This document shows positions 73 through 10,308 of a stretch of DNA of 16,802 bases, in pieces. The stretch lies in the NCBI GenBank assembly GCA_023129115.1, contig JAGMCR010000007.1, positions 1 to 16,802 of the forward strand, read 5' to 3'. This stretch comes from Candidatus Iainarchaeum sp. GTDB lineage: Archaea > B1Sed10-29 > WALL01. Numbering within the stretch: position 1 is the stretch's first letter; each line of letters begins with the position of its first letter. Position numbers and translations under genes: made by a program. The notes under the pieces were generated by a model that saw only the letters and a program-made list of their open reading frames with translations, was not told where the DNA came from and did not search any database.

Positions 73-336
73 TTAGTAAATGTCATCATGGTGCCCATAA
101 TCAAGCAATCTAACAATCTTTTTTTCTTCATTAATTTCATAAAGTAAAATAAATGGTTTGTGTACGTGCACTCTTCGCGACCCTTTCATATCCCCACGTA
201 ATGGCTTGAAATGATATGGGTTTTTGAGGATTTGCCGGACTTTCTTGCCAATGGCCTTAATCTGTTGTTTGTCCTTCTTTGCGAGTTTGGCAAGCTTTTT
301 GTCAAGTTCTTTAGCAATTTTTAGCTTGTAGTCCAT
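73..336 (-). CDS. relE: Type II toxin, RelE/StbE (YafQ-like) mRNA interferase
   Basis: 87 aa, basic; KNPYHFKPLRGDMKGSRRVHV...FILLYEI...VRLLDYGHHDDIY is typical of archaeal RelE-family toxins; lies 3 nt downstream of a small RHH gene. Confidence 0.88.
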   Translation of the reverse strand: MDYKLKIAKELDKKLAKLAKKDKQQIKAIGKKVRQILKNPYHFKPLRGDMKGSRRVHVHKPFILLYEINEEKKIVRLLDYGHHDDIY

Positions 337-339
337 ACC

Positions 340-561
340 CTAAGCCCCATATCTCTCGGTAAAGTTCTTGACAGTAATGAACTCTCCTTTCTTGATTCTA
401 TCTAGCTTTTTCAGATACTCTTTTTTCGCCTCTGGCTCTTTTTCAATCATTGACTCCATGAACATGCTTACTTGTTTGCTCATGCTAATCCCATGTTCCT
501 TGCAGAACTGGGAGAATTTTAGGTATACACTTTCTTCGACATTAAATGTTTTTAACACCAT
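340..561 (-). CDS. Putative antitoxin with ribbon-helix-helix N-terminus
   Basis: MVLKTFNVEESVYLKFSQFCKEHGISMSKQVSMFM shows a strand-helix-helix pattern; ATG at 561 preceded by GGTGAT RBS; upstream of and co-oriented with relE. Confidence 0.75.
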   Translation of the reverse strand: MVLKTFNVEESVYLKFSQFCKEHGISMSKQVSMFMESMIEKEPEAKKEYLKKLDRIKKGEFITVKNFTERYGA

Positions 562-573
562 CCATATCACCAA

Positions 574-1545: not shown

Positions 1546-1560
1546 TATTTAAAGGTTACG
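1546..1560 (-). promoter_or_regulatory. TATA box of the 5S rRNA gene
   Basis: Minus strand cgtaaccTTTAAATA, about 24 nt upstream of the 5S 5' end. Confidence 0.7.
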
Positions 1561-1572
1561 CCGAAAACGGCG

Positions 1573-1842
1573 TTATCTCTTTATAAAAGCCGATATTTCC
1601 TCGACAGTCTTGTCAACCGCCCTGTACACTTCCGCCTCGCTTTTGGCGCCCGTGCAAATCATCTTGCCGTTCTTGAACAGGAGCAGGCTCGTCTTCGGCT
1701 TCTTGAGCTTCAGAATCGCGCCGGGAAACTGCTCGGGCTCGTACTCCACGTTGTCCAGCTCGTGCGCAATCGCGTACAAGTCAAGCTCTGCGTTCAAGTT
1801 GGCCGAAGCGACTATGTTCTCTATGTTAAACTTGGCTTCCAT
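1573..1842 (-). CDS. tbp: Single-repeat (monopartite) TATA-box-binding protein homolog, 89 aa
   Basis: IENIVASANL..ELDLYAIA..LDNVEYEPEQFPGAILKLKKPKTSLLLFKNGKMICTGAKSEAEV is exactly one TBP repeat; ATG at 1842 lies downstream of TATA boxes; stop follows the last helix. Confidence 0.92.
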   Translation of the reverse strand: MEAKFNIENIVASANLNAELDLYAIAHELDNVEYEPEQFPGAILKLKKPKTSLLLFKNGKMICTGAKSEAEVYRAVDKTVEEISAFIKR

Positions 1843-1907: not shown

Positions 1908-2237
1908 TCACAAAGCCAATGCAAAGATGCCCACCACAAGGGTCCAAATCAGGTTCAGGAGAAACGTCACCGAGTTCACCGCCACGCCCGCCTGGCCGTA
2001 AATCAGCACCACGACCGTCAGGATTGCGAGCCCGTTCCACCAGTCGTCCCTCCGGCTGCCGCCGAAGCCCATGACGCCAGAGACAATCCTGGACAGCACG
2101 CCCCACACAAGGTAAAACGCGCCGACCATGGCCACGAACGGGAGCAGGGTCGCGAACAGCTTTGGATAGGCCGCAAGTGCAACTATCCCTACACCGAAAA
2201 GCATGTACAAAAACTCTACGAGCTCACCTTCGTCCAT
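1908..2237 (-). CDS. Hypothetical small membrane protein (about 4 TM)
   Basis: MDEGELVEFLYMLFGVGIVALAAY... with hydrophobic segments; minus-strand TTTTTATA at 2263-2270 is about 25 nt upstream of ATG 2237. Confidence 0.7.
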   Translation of the reverse strand: MDEGELVEFLYMLFGVGIVALAAYPKLFATLLPFVAMVGAFYLVWGVLSRIVSGVMGFGGSRRDDWWNGLAILTVVVLIYGQAGVAVNSVTFLLNLIWTLVVGIFALAL

Positions 2238-2347
2238 GTAGTTACTGTTGGGTAGTAACACATATAAAAAGTTTTTGCCATGGCGTCCTATATATAAAGG
2301 GGAAGCTTCATAACCATGGGCACGCATTGATTTTAGGAGTGTGAAAA

Positions 2348-2632
2348 ATGCGAAAGAGCAAGGGCAAGATGCGGGGCACGAGGGGCCTCCGCAAGGGCCA
2401 CAGAGAGAAGGGCATGAAGCCCGTGAACCAATACCTGCAGGAATTCGCGGTGGGCGACAGCGTCCACATATCGTTAGTGGTCTCCGAGCCGTCCGGCATG
2501 CCGTACCCCCGGTTCAACGGGAGGACGGGCGTCGTGGAGGGCAAGCAGGGCAATGCTTACAAGGTAAAAATCAAGGACGGGGACAAGGACAAGGTCCTGC
2601 TGATAACCCCGGTCCACCTCAAGAAGGCGTGA
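2348..2632 (+). CDS. rpl21e: 50S ribosomal protein L21e (eL21)
   Basis: MRKSKGKMRGTR..LRK..REKG...LQEFAVGDSVHI...GMPYPRFNGRTGVV..KQGNAYKVKIKDGDKDK.L.I.PVHLK; conserved position before rpo4. Confidence 0.97.
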   Translation: MRKSKGKMRGTRGLRKGHREKGMKPVNQYLQEFAVGDSVHISLVVSEPSGMPYPRFNGRTGVVEGKQGNAYKVKIKDGDKDKVLLITPVHLKKA

Positions 2633-2635
2633 ACC

Positions 2636-2974
2636 ATGATAGGCAAAAAAATCATCGAGGAAAAGGACATCACGGTCAGTGACGTCAAGAACATACTCAC
2701 GAAGCGGAAGAAAGAGGGCGAGCTCTCGTACGAGCAGAAGCTCTCCTACGACTATTCCGCGGAGTTCGGGGGGCTCACGGTCACCAGGGCACGCGAGCTC
2801 GTCGATGGCCTCATGAAGATTGAGGGCCTCGACAGCCCCACCGCGGTCCAGATTGCGGACAACCTCCCCGTGGACAGGGACGACCTGATGGTCATCCTGG
2901 AGAAGCGCAGGAAGGGCCTCGAGGACGCGGACATAAAAAAGGTCCTGGACCTCGTGGCAAAGGCACAGAAGTGA
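2636..2974 (+). CDS. rpo4: DNA-directed RNA polymerase subunit Rpo4 (RpoF)
   Basis: MIGKKIIEEKDIT..VK.IL..RKKEGELSYEQK...DY..AVQIADNLP.D.DDL; synteny rpl21e-rpo4-DUF655-rsmA. Confidence 0.93.
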   Translation: MIGKKIIEEKDITVSDVKNILTKRKKEGELSYEQKLSYDYSAEFGGLTVTRARELVDGLMKIEGLDSPTAVQIADNLPVDRDDLMVILEKRRKGLEDADIKKVLDLVAKAQK

Positions 2975-2981
2975 ACCGGAA

Positions 2982-3554
2982 ATGAAGGAAGAGCAGGCAA
3001 TTGTGCTGGACTACCTCTCCCGGGGGTATTCCTCGTCCTATACGGGCGAGCCGATAGCGCAAGCCGTGGGCACCACCCGCTTCACCCTGCTCGAGCTGGT
3101 GCCGCGGGACGGCGTCTTCCTGTCGCTGCGGCAGCAGGTCTACATCGGGCCTGACGAGCGGAAGGAAGTCAAGTTCATCAAAGGCCGGCTCGAGTACGCC
3201 AAGCTCACGAACGCGGCGCGGAACGAGCTGCCGCTCGTGATTGAGGAGACCATCACGGCCAACGAGGCGAAGTACGTCGAGTTCTTCAACAAGGCCGGCC
3301 CAATAAGCATCCGCAAGCACTCCCTGGAGCTTCTCCCCAGCGTGGGCAAGAAGCACATGGAGGCCATTGTGGACGAGCGGGAGAGGAAGCCGTTCGACTC
3401 TTTCAAAAACTTGACCGAGCGAGTGAACCTGATGCCGAACCCGGTCCGCGTCATCCAGGAGCGCGTGCTCGAGGAGCTCCAGGGCAACGGGATAAAGTAC
3501 TACATCTTCACAGCGCCGCCCAAGCGCGACGACGCTCCGAGGCGTTACCGGTGA
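2982..3554 (+). CDS. DUF655 family protein (putative nucleic-acid binding)
   Basis: EEQAIVLDYL..G...PIAQAVG..FTLLELVP...FFNKAGPISIRKHSLELLPSVGKKHM..I..ER..KPFDSF; conserved synteny. Confidence 0.93.
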   Translation: MKEEQAIVLDYLSRGYSSSYTGEPIAQAVGTTRFTLLELVPRDGVFLSLRQQVYIGPDERKEVKFIKGRLEYAKLTNAARNELPLVIEETITANEAKYVEFFNKAGPISIRKHSLELLPSVGKKHMEAIVDERERKPFDSFKNLTERVNLMPNPVRVIQERVLEELQGNGIKYYIFTAPPKRDDAPRRYR

Positions 3555-4246
3555 ACCTGCTCACCGAGGCAGCCTATTTTTTGCAGACCAGCGCCCGTCA
3601 CAGGGACCAGCACTTTTTGGTGAACGAGGAGCTGCTGCACCGCGAGGCCGGCTACGCCCAGCTAACCAAAAGCGACGTTGTCCTCGAGGTCGGCGGCGGC
3701 CTCGGCTTCCTCACGCGCGAATTGGTCAAGCACTGCAAGACCATAGTCGTCGAAAAGGACATCCGCTTCATCGGCACCCTCCAGAAGCTCGGCGCCGAAG
3801 TAATCCACGGCAACGCCCTGAAAATAGGGTTCCCGGAATTCACCAAGTTCGTGTCCAACATCCCCTACTCGATTTCCCTGCCCTTGACGCTAAAGCTCCT
3901 CCGCACCGACTTTAAGCTGGGCGTCATAATCGCCCAAAAAGAGTTCGCCAAGAAGCTCGCGGCGAAGCCCGGCTCAAACGAGTACGGCCGCGCGTCGGTA
4001 ATCGCGCAGTACTACGCCGACATCGAGCTCCTCGACAAAGTCAGGAAAAGCGACTTCGAGCCCAAGCCAAAGGTAGAGTCGCGCGTCGTGTTCTTTCGCA
4101 AGCGCCGCGGGGAAGACCGCGGGTTCGAGGGCTTCGCCACTTCGCTCTTCCGCCACCGCCGCAAGAAAGCCGCTGGAACCGACAAGCGGCCCGAACAATT
4201 AACGATTGACGACTTCATTCGCCTTTATAAGCAACAAAAGAGTTGA
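3551..4246 (+). CDS. rsmA: 16S rRNA adenine dimethyltransferase RsmA/KsgA
   Basis: DQHFL, VLEVGGGLGFLT (SAM motif), SNIPYSIS, QKEFA, F.P.PKVES, F.HRRK; GTG start overlaps the DUF655 stop. Confidence 0.93.
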   Translation: MNLLTEAAYFLQTSARHRDQHFLVNEELLHREAGYAQLTKSDVVLEVGGGLGFLTRELVKHCKTIVVEKDIRFIGTLQKLGAEVIHGNALKIGFPEFTKFVSNIPYSISLPLTLKLLRTDFKLGVIIAQKEFAKKLAAKPGSNEYGRASVIAQYYADIELLDKVRKSDFEPKPKVESRVVFFRKRRGEDRGFEGFATSLFRHRRKKAAGTDKRPEQLTIDDFIRLYKQQKS

Positions 4247-4253
4247 TTTACGC

Positions 4254-5084
4254 ATGAAAATCTCGTTCATCGGCGCGGGCCGTGTCGGCAGCTCCGCGGC
4301 ATTCTCTGTCCTCCACTCTGTCGACGCCGCCAAGGAAATCGTTTTGGTCGACGTCGAGGGCGGCCTCGCGGAGGGCGAGGCACAGGACCTGACGCACGCG
4401 GCCTTCGCGATGGAGCGCGGCGACGTCAAAATCACTGGCTCGGAAGGCTATTCCGCGGCGAAGGGCAGCGACGTCTGCGTCGTGACCGCGGGAATCGCGC
4501 GGCAGGAGGGCCAGTCGAGGGACGAGCTGCTCAAGACCAACGCGGGCATAATCCGGTCCGTGGCCGCCGAGCTGAAGAAGGCCGCCCCGAACGCAATCGT
4601 CATCACTGTCACGAACCAGGTCGACGCAATCAACTACTTGATGTGGAGAGAGACGGGCTTCCCGCGCGAGCACGTGGTCGGCATGAGTGGGGTGCTCGAC
4701 ACCGCGCGGCTGCATTCCCTGGGGTTCGACGGCTTCGTGGTCGGGGCGCACGGCGACTTGATGGTCCCCACGGAAGAGGTCCCGCCGGACAAGCTGGAGG
4801 AGCTCCGCGCGACTGGCGCGAGCGTGATTGCCAAGAAGGGCGCGACGTTCTATGGGCCGGCGGTGTCAATCAACCGCATGGTGTACGCGGTCGCGAACGA
4901 CACGCAGGAAATCCTGCCGTGCTCGTGCGTGCTTGACGGCGAGTACGGGCTCACCGGGCTTTCCATCGGCGTGCCGGCGTCCATCCGGAAGGGGGGCGCT
5001 GTGCCCGTCGAGATGGACATGCCGCCCGAGTTCTCCGAGGCAGCCGAGCACATAAAGAAGCAGATTGCGTCGCTTGGGCTATAG
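4254..5084 (+). CDS. mdh: Malate dehydrogenase, LDH-like family
   Basis: KISFIGAGRVG Rossmann motif; TAGIARQEGQSRDEL has Arg at the MDH specificity position; LDTAR and GAHGD catalytic motifs. Confidence 0.85.
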   Translation: MKISFIGAGRVGSSAAFSVLHSVDAAKEIVLVDVEGGLAEGEAQDLTHAAFAMERGDVKITGSEGYSAAKGSDVCVVTAGIARQEGQSRDELLKTNAGIIRSVAAELKKAAPNAIVITVTNQVDAINYLMWRETGFPREHVVGMSGVLDTARLHSLGFDGFVVGAHGDLMVPTEEVPPDKLEELRATGASVIAKKGATFYGPAVSINRMVYAVANDTQEILPCSCVLDGEYGLTGLSIGVPASIRKGGAVPVEMDMPPEFSEAAEHIKKQIASLGL

Positions 5085-9952: not shown

Positions 9953-10242
9953 GGCACGTTCGACTAAAGCGGGGCCAAAAGGCCCCGCGAATAGGCATGC
10001 ACTTTTCCAACTAATGAAAAAAGAGTTTGGCGCCCAGCTGAAACTCAGCCCAGACGAGAATCCCCCGGCGTTTTCATTTGGGAAATTCGCCAGGTGCCCC
10101 GGCAATCCTGTGGGATTCGCCAGGTCCTGCGGGATTCACGTCATGGCACGTTAGACTTGGGGGGCGTCAACTGACGCCCCCCAGAGGCATTTTTCTCGTG
10201 CACACTTTTCCAACTAACAACAGAAAAGAGTTTGGCGCCCAG
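9953..10242 (-). repeat. tRNA-linked direct repeat: two units (9953-10037 and 10145-10242), each including the 3' 10 nt of tRNA-Asn
   Basis: Both units read ggcacgtt(c/a)gact - GC hairpin - aggcat - cacttttccaactaa - aaaagagtttggcgcccag. Confidence 0.8.
10063..10140. repeat. Cluster of about 2.5 REP-like units
   Basis: ccccggc...gggaaattcgccaggt, ccccggcaatcctgtgggattcgccaggt and cctgcgggattc in tandem; related copy at 1-27. Confidence 0.7.
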
Positions 10243-10308
10243 GAAGAGATTTGAACTCTTGACCTTTCGGTTAACAGCCGAACGCTCTACCGACTAAGCT
10301 ACCTGGGC
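10233..10308 (-). tRNA. tRNA-Asn (GTT), intronless, CCA encoded
   Basis: gcccagg-tagcttagtcggtagagc-gttcggctGTTaaccgaa-aggtc-aagagttcaaatctctt-cctgggc-gcca; 76-nt cloverleaf. Confidence 0.97.

Follow-up and report, generated by a model that had tools for sequence, protein, structure and literature searches.

The window, by which we mean the whole 16,802-nucleotide stretch of archaeal DNA that was analysed, carries on its minus strand a short gene for a stand-alone TBP repeat, lying 49 nt upstream of a 5S rRNA gene. The features of this part of the window are as follows:

1402–1523 (read from 1523 to 1402), minus strand: stand-alone 5S rRNA gene (Rfam, 84.3 bits)
1546–1553, minus strand: putative 5S TATA box, TTTAAATA, 20–27 nt past the TBP stop and 23–30 nt before the 5S 5' end
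1573–1842, minus strand: single-repeat TBP gene (paralog A), 89 aa, coordinates including the stop codon
1853–1860, no strand assigned: second palindromic box, TTTATAAA, 11–18 nt upstream of the TBP ATG
1874–1881, no strand assigned: palindromic TATA-like box, TTTATAAA, 32–39 nt upstream of the TBP ATG
1908–2327, minus strand: upstream ORF of 139 aa, hydrophobic and without a Pfam match

The TBP ORF runs from an ATG at 1842 to a stop codon at 1575–1573. The 139-aa ORF ends at 1908, 65 nt ahead of this ATG, and because this ORF and the 5S rRNA gene bound the TBP gene, the locus has no room for a second repeat. An earlier sequence-only reading of the window had said as much, placing a 5S TATA box about 20 nt past the stop and the end of another gene about 65 nt before the start, and the coordinates agree with it on each point. 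It had also given the ORF a TATA box and an ATG of its own, and both are indeed there. Judging from spacing, TTTATAAA at 1874–1881 is likely the promoter box of the TBP gene, and from its position we infer that TTTAAATA at 1546–1553 is the promoter box of the 5S rRNA gene. The window holds six TTTATAAA boxes where 0.06 would be expected, and genome-wide this is the most frequent enriched upstream 8-mer, found ahead of 31 of the 543 ATG-start genes (15-fold enrichment, median position -34). We considered the palindromic form of the box as evidence for a symmetric TBP and set it aside: assessed in this genome without a comparison genome, it is consistent with such a protein and does not discriminate, since archaeal TATA boxes are generally near-palindromic. 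A longer in-frame ORF starting at a GTG (177 aa) was also rejected as a gene model, as it is not conserved; the stop-to-stop frames of orthologs measure 88–124 aa, with an ATG 0–30 codons before the domain and a stop directly after it.

A single, intact TBP repeat

The 89-aa protein matches Pfam PF00352 with an E-value of 2.8e-30 and 104.4 bits (curated cut-off 22.9), and its residues 4–84 cover profile positions 1–83 of 85, i.e. exactly one repeat, as had been read from the translation. NCBIfam models for full-length TBP give only half-length matches, to their first or second half, that fall far below the whole-protein cut-offs. The best PDB match is 1mp9_A (E-value 4.4e-45), and against both 1MP9 and 1AIS the protein (P0001) aligns to either repeat with similar scores; identity to either repeat of solved canonical archaeal TBPs is 44–48%. 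The motifs NIVAS, EYEPEQFPG, LLLFKNGK and CTGAK are all present in the translation, bearing out the earlier remark that NIVAS, the phenylalanines of QFPG and LLF.NGK, the EYEPE stirrup and CTGAK have been retained. An alignment of 48 single-repeat homologs has 35 invariant columns, among them F39, F56 and the stirrup V32-E-Y-E-P-E-Q-F-P-G41, which is the same motif as in the C repeat of 1AIS. The acidic stirrup of the C-terminal repeat of canonical TBP binds TFB/TFIIB. F39 (in QFPG) and F56 (in LLFKNGK) form the paired phenylalanines that the alignment equates with those of solved TBPs, and which we take to be the DNA-intercalating residues.

The AlphaFold2 monomer has a mean pLDDT of 94.3 and places strands at residues 10–15, 32–34, 42–46, 51–55 and 60–66 and helices at 22–28 and 69–86; this order, strand-helix-four strands-helix, is that of a TBP repeat. 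In a Foldseek comparison with 44 solved TBP chains the model superimposes onto one repeat, with TM-scores of 0.84–0.92 when normalised to the query and of about 0.45 when normalised to the target, and the first match outside TBP is mouse OGG1 (E-value 0.23, TM 0.48). By sequence match and by repeat fold the protein belongs to the same Pfam family, PF00352, as the canonical archaeal TBPs of S. acidocaldarius (1MP9), P. woesei (1AIS/1PCZ) and M. jannaschii (2Z8U). These, however, are about 180 aa long with two repeats per chain, whereas the chain here holds one and stops after helix 2, so that a saddle needs two chains; and where each canonical repeat is of N or C type, the repeat here is neither. 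Sequence and fold place the 89-aa protein in the TBP family, but it lacks the family's hallmark of two fused, differentiated repeats.

Could such a gene be an artefact or a decaying remnant, i.e. the product of a broken assembly, a TBP with a frameshift or a pseudogene? Accidents of this kind do occur among its relatives, one repeat in genome G020 being split over two contig ends and the second repeat of the two-repeat gene L071 being spread over two frames. In the window, however, the start and stop are clean and the locus cannot accommodate a second repeat. Contigs of two further runs (X2 and X3) from one cold-seep study either tile the locus or bridge it, with zero differences, and one of these contigs, 526 bp long, spans 1512–2037, which speaks against the assembly break that the sequence-only reading had named as a risk; run X1 is a possible source of the window DNA and so not independent, and X2 and X3 belong to the same study. 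The same single-repeat architecture occurs at 46 of 80 fetched loci, one of them in a single-cell genome. Compared with a same-genus ortholog from a single-cell genome (96% identical), the gene has a dN of 0.029, a dS of 0.633 and a dN/dS of 0.046; most ortholog pairs are saturated (median pS 0.88), and the informative values are those of the closest pairs only. The gene is under strong purifying selection, and the relaxed selection that had been proposed as a check is not seen. We give an artefact or remnant almost no credence.

TBP genes in the genome and its relatives

Archaea and eukaryotes need TBP to initiate transcription, and the question is whether a two-repeat TBP accompanies the lone repeat. 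The genome to which the window belongs comprises 1.25 Mb on 19 contigs and is 88.6% complete. A six-frame search with PF00352, of the kind the sequence-only reading had called for, gave five matches that make up four genes, three with a lone repeat and one with two weak ones:

Paralog A: positions 1842 to 1573 of the window, minus strand; 89 aa; closest to the consensus of all copies
Paralog B: G000:C15; 223 aa; one repeat and a Lys/Ala-rich tail
Third lone repeat: divergent and fast-evolving
Two-repeat orphan: G000:C1:23787-24440; 217 aa; Pfam 68 bits, with weak repeats of 27 and 44 bits

A scan of 22,287 open frames with N- and C-repeat HMMs returned the same four genes and nothing further, so that neither search found a canonical two-repeat TBP in this genome. 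TFB is encoded by one ordinary gene (G000:C18). No counterpart of the orphan, which starts with a hydrophobic segment resembling that of a lipoprotein, turned up in the 30 relatives searched, and among 5.8 billion proteins it retrieves only itself and four distant TBPs at 28–34% identity.

Because the genome is 88.6% complete, the case for the absence of a two-repeat TBP has to be made from relatives and from genomes of another phylum that lie on a single contig. Of 30 related genomes, 23 contain only lone-repeat genes (counting G020, whose repeat is the broken one), four have two-repeat genes (G014, G016, G018 and G019) and three gave no usable match; two lone-repeat genes are present in G004 (98% complete) and a single one in G007 (96% complete). 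A wider census covered 121 genomes of at least 80% completeness, centred on a genome titled Micrarchaeota and grouped as a phylum neighbouring that of the window. The classes were read by hand from the sizes of stop-to-stop frames, among the matches listed (with 56 others besides):

Exactly one lone repeat: 34 genomes
Two or three lone repeats at separate loci: at least 32 genomes
Two-repeat gene: 36 genomes
Mixed: 1 genome; ambiguous: 2 genomes; no match: 3 genomes
Without a class among the matches listed: 13 genomes

At least 66 of the 121 genomes thus have lone repeats only, or at least 65 of 120 without G063, which is counted here and is flagged as unpublished. All 35 loci then fetched from the census are single repeats, in frames of 101–142 aa. 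Five genomes are essentially whole on one contig:

G120: 1,302,862 bp, one repeat
G136: 1,178,830 bp, three lone repeats
G076: 852,977 bp, one repeat
G067: 814,439 bp, two lone repeats
G072: 771,545 bp, one repeat

At Iainarchaeota loci, that of the complete genome AR10 among them, the TBP genes are of the ordinary two-repeat kind.

The position of the gene links the two forms. In all seven scanned loci of families f1 and f2, the TBP gene is followed downstream by a 5S rRNA gene on the same strand; at the 13 other scanned loci, some of which are short contigs, no 5S rRNA gene was seen behind TBP. In a second set of 20 loci the order TBP-then-5S occurs in four, namely AR10, where a two-repeat TBP lies directly upstream of the 5S rRNA gene with a gap of about 35 nt, L063, another Iainarchaeota TBP, and G120 and G040, both single-repeat genes. 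From the shared order in the f1/f2 loci and in AR10 it follows that the window gene is the positional ortholog of canonical TBP. The sequence-only reading had regarded a full-length TBP at this locus in relatives as a point against an intact half-TBP. Such genes exist, in distant relatives only, and what they show is orthology, not truncation.

With no normal TBP found in the genome or in most relatives, and with the gene at the syntenic TBP-then-5S position, paralog A would be the primary TBP. We think it probable that in this lineage the 89-aa protein serves as the general TBP, in the form of a dimer of single repeats; its dimerisation is predicted from modelling (see below), and its binding to DNA and TFB and its general role we infer.

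The role first suggested for the gene was a different one, that of an alternative initiation factor or TATA-occluding regulator beside a normal TBP, and this we do not favour given that no normal TBP was found and that the gene holds the TBP-5S position. In its fuller form, this explanation would have an accessory half-TBP modulate or occlude TATA boxes, with the canonical TBP either missing from the assembly or represented by the two-repeat orphan as general factor. The completeness of 88.6% leaves space for a missing gene, a two-repeat ORF with 68 bits does exist at G000:C1:23787-24440, and there are precedents for coexistence. In Brindefalk et al. 2013 (PMC3597702), Thermococcales are described as having monopartite TBP-domain proteins of 91–97 aa that are strongly diverged, form their own cluster and occur beside one or two full-length TBPs; the same source describes a halobacterial TbpA with one TBP domain, close in sequence to TBPs, which is non-essential and accompanied by several full-length TBPs. 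Relatives that are 96–98% complete, and the single-contig genomes of the neighbouring phylum, nevertheless lack a two-repeat gene; the orphan, with its lipoprotein-like start, has no counterpart in the 30 relatives and only distant TBPs among the 5.8 billion proteins; and it is the 89-aa gene that is nearest to the consensus of all copies and sits at the syntenic position. An accessory role is very unlikely on this evidence.

The comparison with these known single domains is instructive in its own right. The sequence-only reading had mentioned monopartite TBP-like ORFs in some euryarchaea, and this matches what is described in PMC3597702, but the situation there is different, the ORFs standing beside full TBPs. 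The Thermococcales proteins are likewise stand-alone single TBP domains of about 90–100 aa; going by the descriptions, they are diverged and have a full TBP alongside, while the protein here is near-consensus and without a full-length TBP. TbpA is likewise a single domain near genuine TBP, but, again by its description, it differs from the gene here, where the single-repeat gene is the conserved, syntenic copy. The TBP-like domains inside RNase HIII and DNA glycosylases, mentioned in the same text, also lack a fused twin, but are distant in sequence and embedded in enzymes. DPANN surveys list TBP simply as present. The full-text literature covered, in part, lies outside most subscription journals and supplements and includes PMC3597702, PMC12917281, PMC7221094, PMC8407392, PMC7289017, PMC8204110 and 10.64898/2026.10.09.758139; within it we found no description of a canonical single-repeat TBP as sole TBP, and the supplementary tables of Brindefalk 2013 or of DPANN comparative-genomics papers could list such genes. 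The new point is a near-consensus, conserved, syntenic single repeat without a two-repeat TBP, in two phylum-level groups.

Paralogs, repeat types and the dimer model

Many of these genomes have two lone-repeat paralogs, which raises a further alternative, namely that A and B are a 'two-gene TBP', an obligate heterodimer in which they act as the two repeats and A alone is non-functional. In the tree, the copies of the window's phylum fall into a clade A (11 rows, SH-aLRT 96) and a clade B (98). The two paralogs are 60% identical and both under purifying selection, and they occur together in each f1 and f2 genome scanned, as an obligate pair would require. In Micrarchaeota proper, all 12 sampled two-paralog genomes have one alpha and one beta copy (support for the beta clade 99), which fits the same idea. 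The genomes with a single copy do not: in G007, G010 and G011 the copy is A, no genome with B only was seen among the scanned genomes of the window's phylum, and in G037, G072, G076 and G109 the one copy present is alpha. Lone A or alpha genes in G007 (96% complete), G010, G011, G015, G120, G076 and G072 thus speak against obligate pairing.

If A and B stood for the two halves of a canonical TBP, they should differ as N and C repeats do. We scored them with N- and C-repeat HMMs built from 119 reference TBPs, 10 of 129 with an N-C identity of at least 48% having been dropped as probable DPANN-like TBPs; repeats below 60 bits or with fewer than 65 query positions, as well as identical duplicates, were left out of the repeat set. 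In cross-validation, 113 of the 119 N repeats and 117 of the 119 C repeats were assigned correctly, with median N-minus-C differences of +10.6 and -12.9 bits. The 89-aa protein scores 119.6 bits with the N model and 115.8 with the C model, lacking by these scores the differentiated N- or C-type character of canonical repeats, and the medians are +4.5 for A, +0.2 for B, +2.1 for alpha and -1.1 bits for beta. On the HMM scores, neither the A/B nor the alpha/beta pair corresponds to the universal N/C split, and A and B, being neither N-like nor C-like, make a poor match for the proposed two-gene TBP.

A separate observation concerns L048 and L062, two-repeat TBPs whose N repeat groups with clade B (in three trees, with SH-aLRT 98, 95 and 92) and whose C repeat lies elsewhere. 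The arrangement resembles a B-A fusion and in that respect would suit obligate pairing, but the two proteins come from a phylum other than that of clade B, and the tree is built on no more than 89 columns; in short-alignment trees across phyla, a B-A fusion is a hint only.

Modelling bears on whether A could manage alone. The 89-aa protein modelled as a homodimer scores 0.51 against 0.02 for the best of three controls, a result that may reflect likeness to solved two-repeat TBPs. The dimer-score mark is reached by 20 of 30 proteins solved as one-chain pairs and by one of 23 solved as single chains, counts that give only a rough calibration here, with our own alignment used as input. At least 94% of the contacts recur between runs, the partner pLDDT is at least 88, and the modelled interface is symmetric, comprising residues 3–14, 16, 61–63 and 69–80. 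Residue 10 contacts 10, 11 contacts 8 and 12 contacts 6, as in antiparallel first strands, with helix 2 behind; this S1-S1' pairing presumably corresponds to the pseudo-dyad seam between the two repeats of TBP. The model supports dimerisation of the 89-aa protein but does not show it, and makes plausible the symmetric homodimeric TBP that the sequence-only reading had proposed. An A homodimer that reaches the mark in modelling also tells against obligate A:B pairing, which taken together we regard as unlikely.

Under the reading we prefer, a general TBP made of two single-repeat chains, the chains would pair through their first beta-strands (residues 3–14, antiparallel) and helix 2 into a ten-stranded saddle, which would replace the saddle of two fused repeats in a normal TBP. 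Each half would contribute two DNA-kinking phenylalanines (F39 and F56), four in a homodimer, and an acidic stirrup of the TFB-binding type (E33-Y-E35-P-E37-Q38), giving two identical ones. In one-copy genomes the dimer would have to be a homodimer, which must suffice there because those genomes keep only A or alpha; in the window's genome A:A, A:B or both would be possible. The saddle would be exactly two-fold symmetric and would suit near-palindromic TATA boxes such as TTTATAAA, and the direction of transcription would then have to come from TFB reading the BRE. Contacts between BRE and TFB reportedly set the polarity of the archaeal pre-initiation complex. If the reading is right, natural proteins would allow a test of whether a perfectly symmetric TBP can drive directional initiation with polarity from TFB and BRE only, and the contribution of N/C asymmetry in normal TBPs would become testable as well.

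Two-repeat relatives and the origin of the single repeat

Textbooks derive the two-repeat TBP saddle from a homodimeric one-repeat ancestor, which to our knowledge has never been observed in action. To place the single repeats, four trees were built with quick IQ-TREE runs; these are unrooted, have 89 columns and SH-aLRT support only, and their reference rows are random subsamples (36+12 of the 129 usable proteins in one tree, 24 in another). The 48 reference TBPs form an N clade (42 of 45 rows) and a C clade (41 of 43 rows). A third clade (SH-aLRT 91, and 90 in a second tree) unites all the repeats, whether single, N or C, that come from the window's phylum, Micrarchaeota and Iainarchaeota. 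A phylogeny against N- and C-terminal repeats had been proposed as a check, and its outcome, in these unrooted trees, is that the single repeats lie outside both reference clades, in the third one.

The two-repeat proteins of these groups differ from reference TBPs in how alike their halves are. N-C identity is 29–54% (median 36%) in reference TBPs and 49–62% in Iainarchaeota-type TBPs, and in four two-repeat proteins of Micrarchaeia type (L107, L013, L014 and L016) the halves are 70–79% identical. The synonymous difference between halves is 29% in L107, below that of a same-genus ortholog pair (43%), 44–52% in L013, L014 and L016 and 67–68% in AR10 and L063. The halves of the high-symmetry proteins are undifferentiated to the same degree (+1.6 and +1.8 bits), and in the Iainarchaeota repeats a faint N/C polarity of the expected sign persists (+2.9 and -2.7 bits). 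There are also proteins with four repeats (L108, of 716 aa and 237 bits, P0242 and P0255). The sequence identity of 70–79% between halves suggests re-duplication, and the simplest reading is that a single-repeat gene was duplicated in tandem and fused more than once, with gene conversion as an alternative explanation for the similar halves.

These data could be taken further, to a common ancestor of the window's phylum, Micrarchaeota and Iainarchaeota that had a one-repeat homodimeric TBP, with two-repeat forms arising anew on several occasions as that gene was duplicated in tandem and fused, a replay of the presumed origin of TBP; in the extreme version, the single repeat would be a relic from before the universal N/C duplication. 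The clustering of DPANN single, N and C repeats in one clade (SH-aLRT 91 and 90), the single repeats being neither N- nor C-like, the 70–79% identical halves of L107, L013, L014 and L016 and the existence of four-repeat proteins are all in line with this. The trees, however, are unrooted with 89 columns, the Iainarchaeota repeats do have their faint polarity, and the same pattern would result from gene conversion, or from the loss of one repeat followed by convergence under a symmetry constraint. We therefore consider this history possible but rather doubtful.

If the single-repeat protein is the general TBP, the long-hypothesised ancestral form would be the main TBP of a small archaeon and many of its relatives. 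The course of duplication and fusion would also become testable, with single-repeat, two-paralog, freshly fused and four-repeat forms coexisting in related genomes. Many of the single-repeat genes carry the NCBI names 'hypothetical protein' or 'TBP, partial', and given such names surveys that rely on marker genes may count TBP as absent or truncated in these lineages.

Further TBP-domain genes of the genome

Besides paralog A, the 89-aa single-repeat TBP of the window, the genome encodes three further proteins with TBP repeats:

G000:C15:27478-28167 (locus L003 1486-2157), minus strand: paralog B, a 223-aa protein
G000:C1:64178-64612 (locus L002), plus strand: third lone-repeat TBP gene, on a long branch
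G000:C1:23787-24440 (locus L004 1093-1746), plus strand: orphan two-repeat TBP-domain ORF of 217 aa (Pfam, 68 bits in total)

In paralog B, a tail of Lys/Ala-rich repeats, approximately 130 residues long, precedes a single TBP repeat. The tail has a weak, sub-threshold likeness to the histone H1-like HC2 family (17.9 bits; cut-off 40). Paralog B may be a TBP half that carries its own non-specific DNA-binding tail. The tailed form is also present in G002, a genome of the same genus, and other family members have a tail-less B. The third lone-repeat protein is equally distant from A and B (43% identity to each) and has a branch length of 1.31 changes per column in the tree, where one copy from G009 clusters with it.

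The orphan ORF has a hydrophobic N-terminus that closes with LLAGC and resembles a lipoprotein signal; two weak TBP repeats come after it. The ORF is closest to ordinary TBPs, with which it shares 28-34% identity, and a counterpart is absent from the 30 relatives searched. It would either encode a secreted TBP-fold protein or have a wrongly set start codon.

Repeat number and placement of TBPs in relatives

TBPs with other repeat arrangements or a discordant placement were found at the following loci:

L108 (G014:C8) 2494-4641: four-repeat TBP protein (237 bits in four stretches)
L071 2968-3599 (record titled Iainarchaeum UBA10036): split two-repeat TBP, second repeat across two reading frames
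L008/L090 (G003:C127, a 3.6-kb contig): single-repeat TBP, then 5S rRNA

The four repeats of L108 are followed by about 300 more residues, and four tandem TBP repeats are also present in proteins P0242 (376 aa) and P0255 (702 aa). Genome G014 encodes, in addition to L108, a two-repeat TBP (L107, G014:C3) with halves that are 79% identical. Including this protein, the halves are 70-79% identical at the protein level in the two-repeat TBPs of G014, G019 (L013/L113), G016 (L016/L110) and G018 (L014/L112), and the synonymous difference between the L107 halves is only 29%; such similarity points to a recent tandem duplication or to gene conversion. A 5S gene lies downstream of none of these four two-repeat TBPs (0/4) within the fetched flank. 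The two-frame second repeat of L071 is a frameshift or assembly error of that record.

G003, the source of L008/L090, is placed in the family of the window. The L008/L090 repeat nevertheless groups with both repeats of the G014 TBP (SH-aLRT 92-98) and not with clade A; the short contig may have been mis-binned, or the gene may have been transferred.

Promoter-like motifs and other genes of the window

Further features of the window are:

1580-1587: third TTTATAAA palindrome, within the last codons of the paralog A ORF
73-573, minus strand: ParE/YafQ-like toxin ORF (Pfam ParE_toxin, 38 bits) and the ORF preceding it
2348-4246, plus strand: information-processing cluster conserved in archaea
10236-10308, minus strand: one tRNA gene (Rfam, 76 bits)

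The palindrome precedes the 5' end of the 5S gene by 57-64 nt and is additional to the 5S TATA box at 1546-1553. In the whole genome (G+C 56%), the 8-mers enriched upstream of genes are all TATA-like (TTTATAAA, TTTAAATA, TTTATATA and TTTTTAAA), exceeding expectation 9-19-fold. Their median positions, -30 to -41 from the ATG, suggest that 5' leaders are mostly short or absent.

The toxin ORF (87 aa) and the 77-aa ORF ahead of it, which is without a Pfam match, form a probable type II toxin-antitoxin pair. A small ORF that looks similar adjoins the third TBP paralog (L002 1924-2226). The cluster, divergent from the TBP side of the window, encodes ribosomal protein L21e, RNA polymerase subunit Rpo4/F (Rpb4 family), DUF655 and the rRNA adenine dimethylase KsgA.
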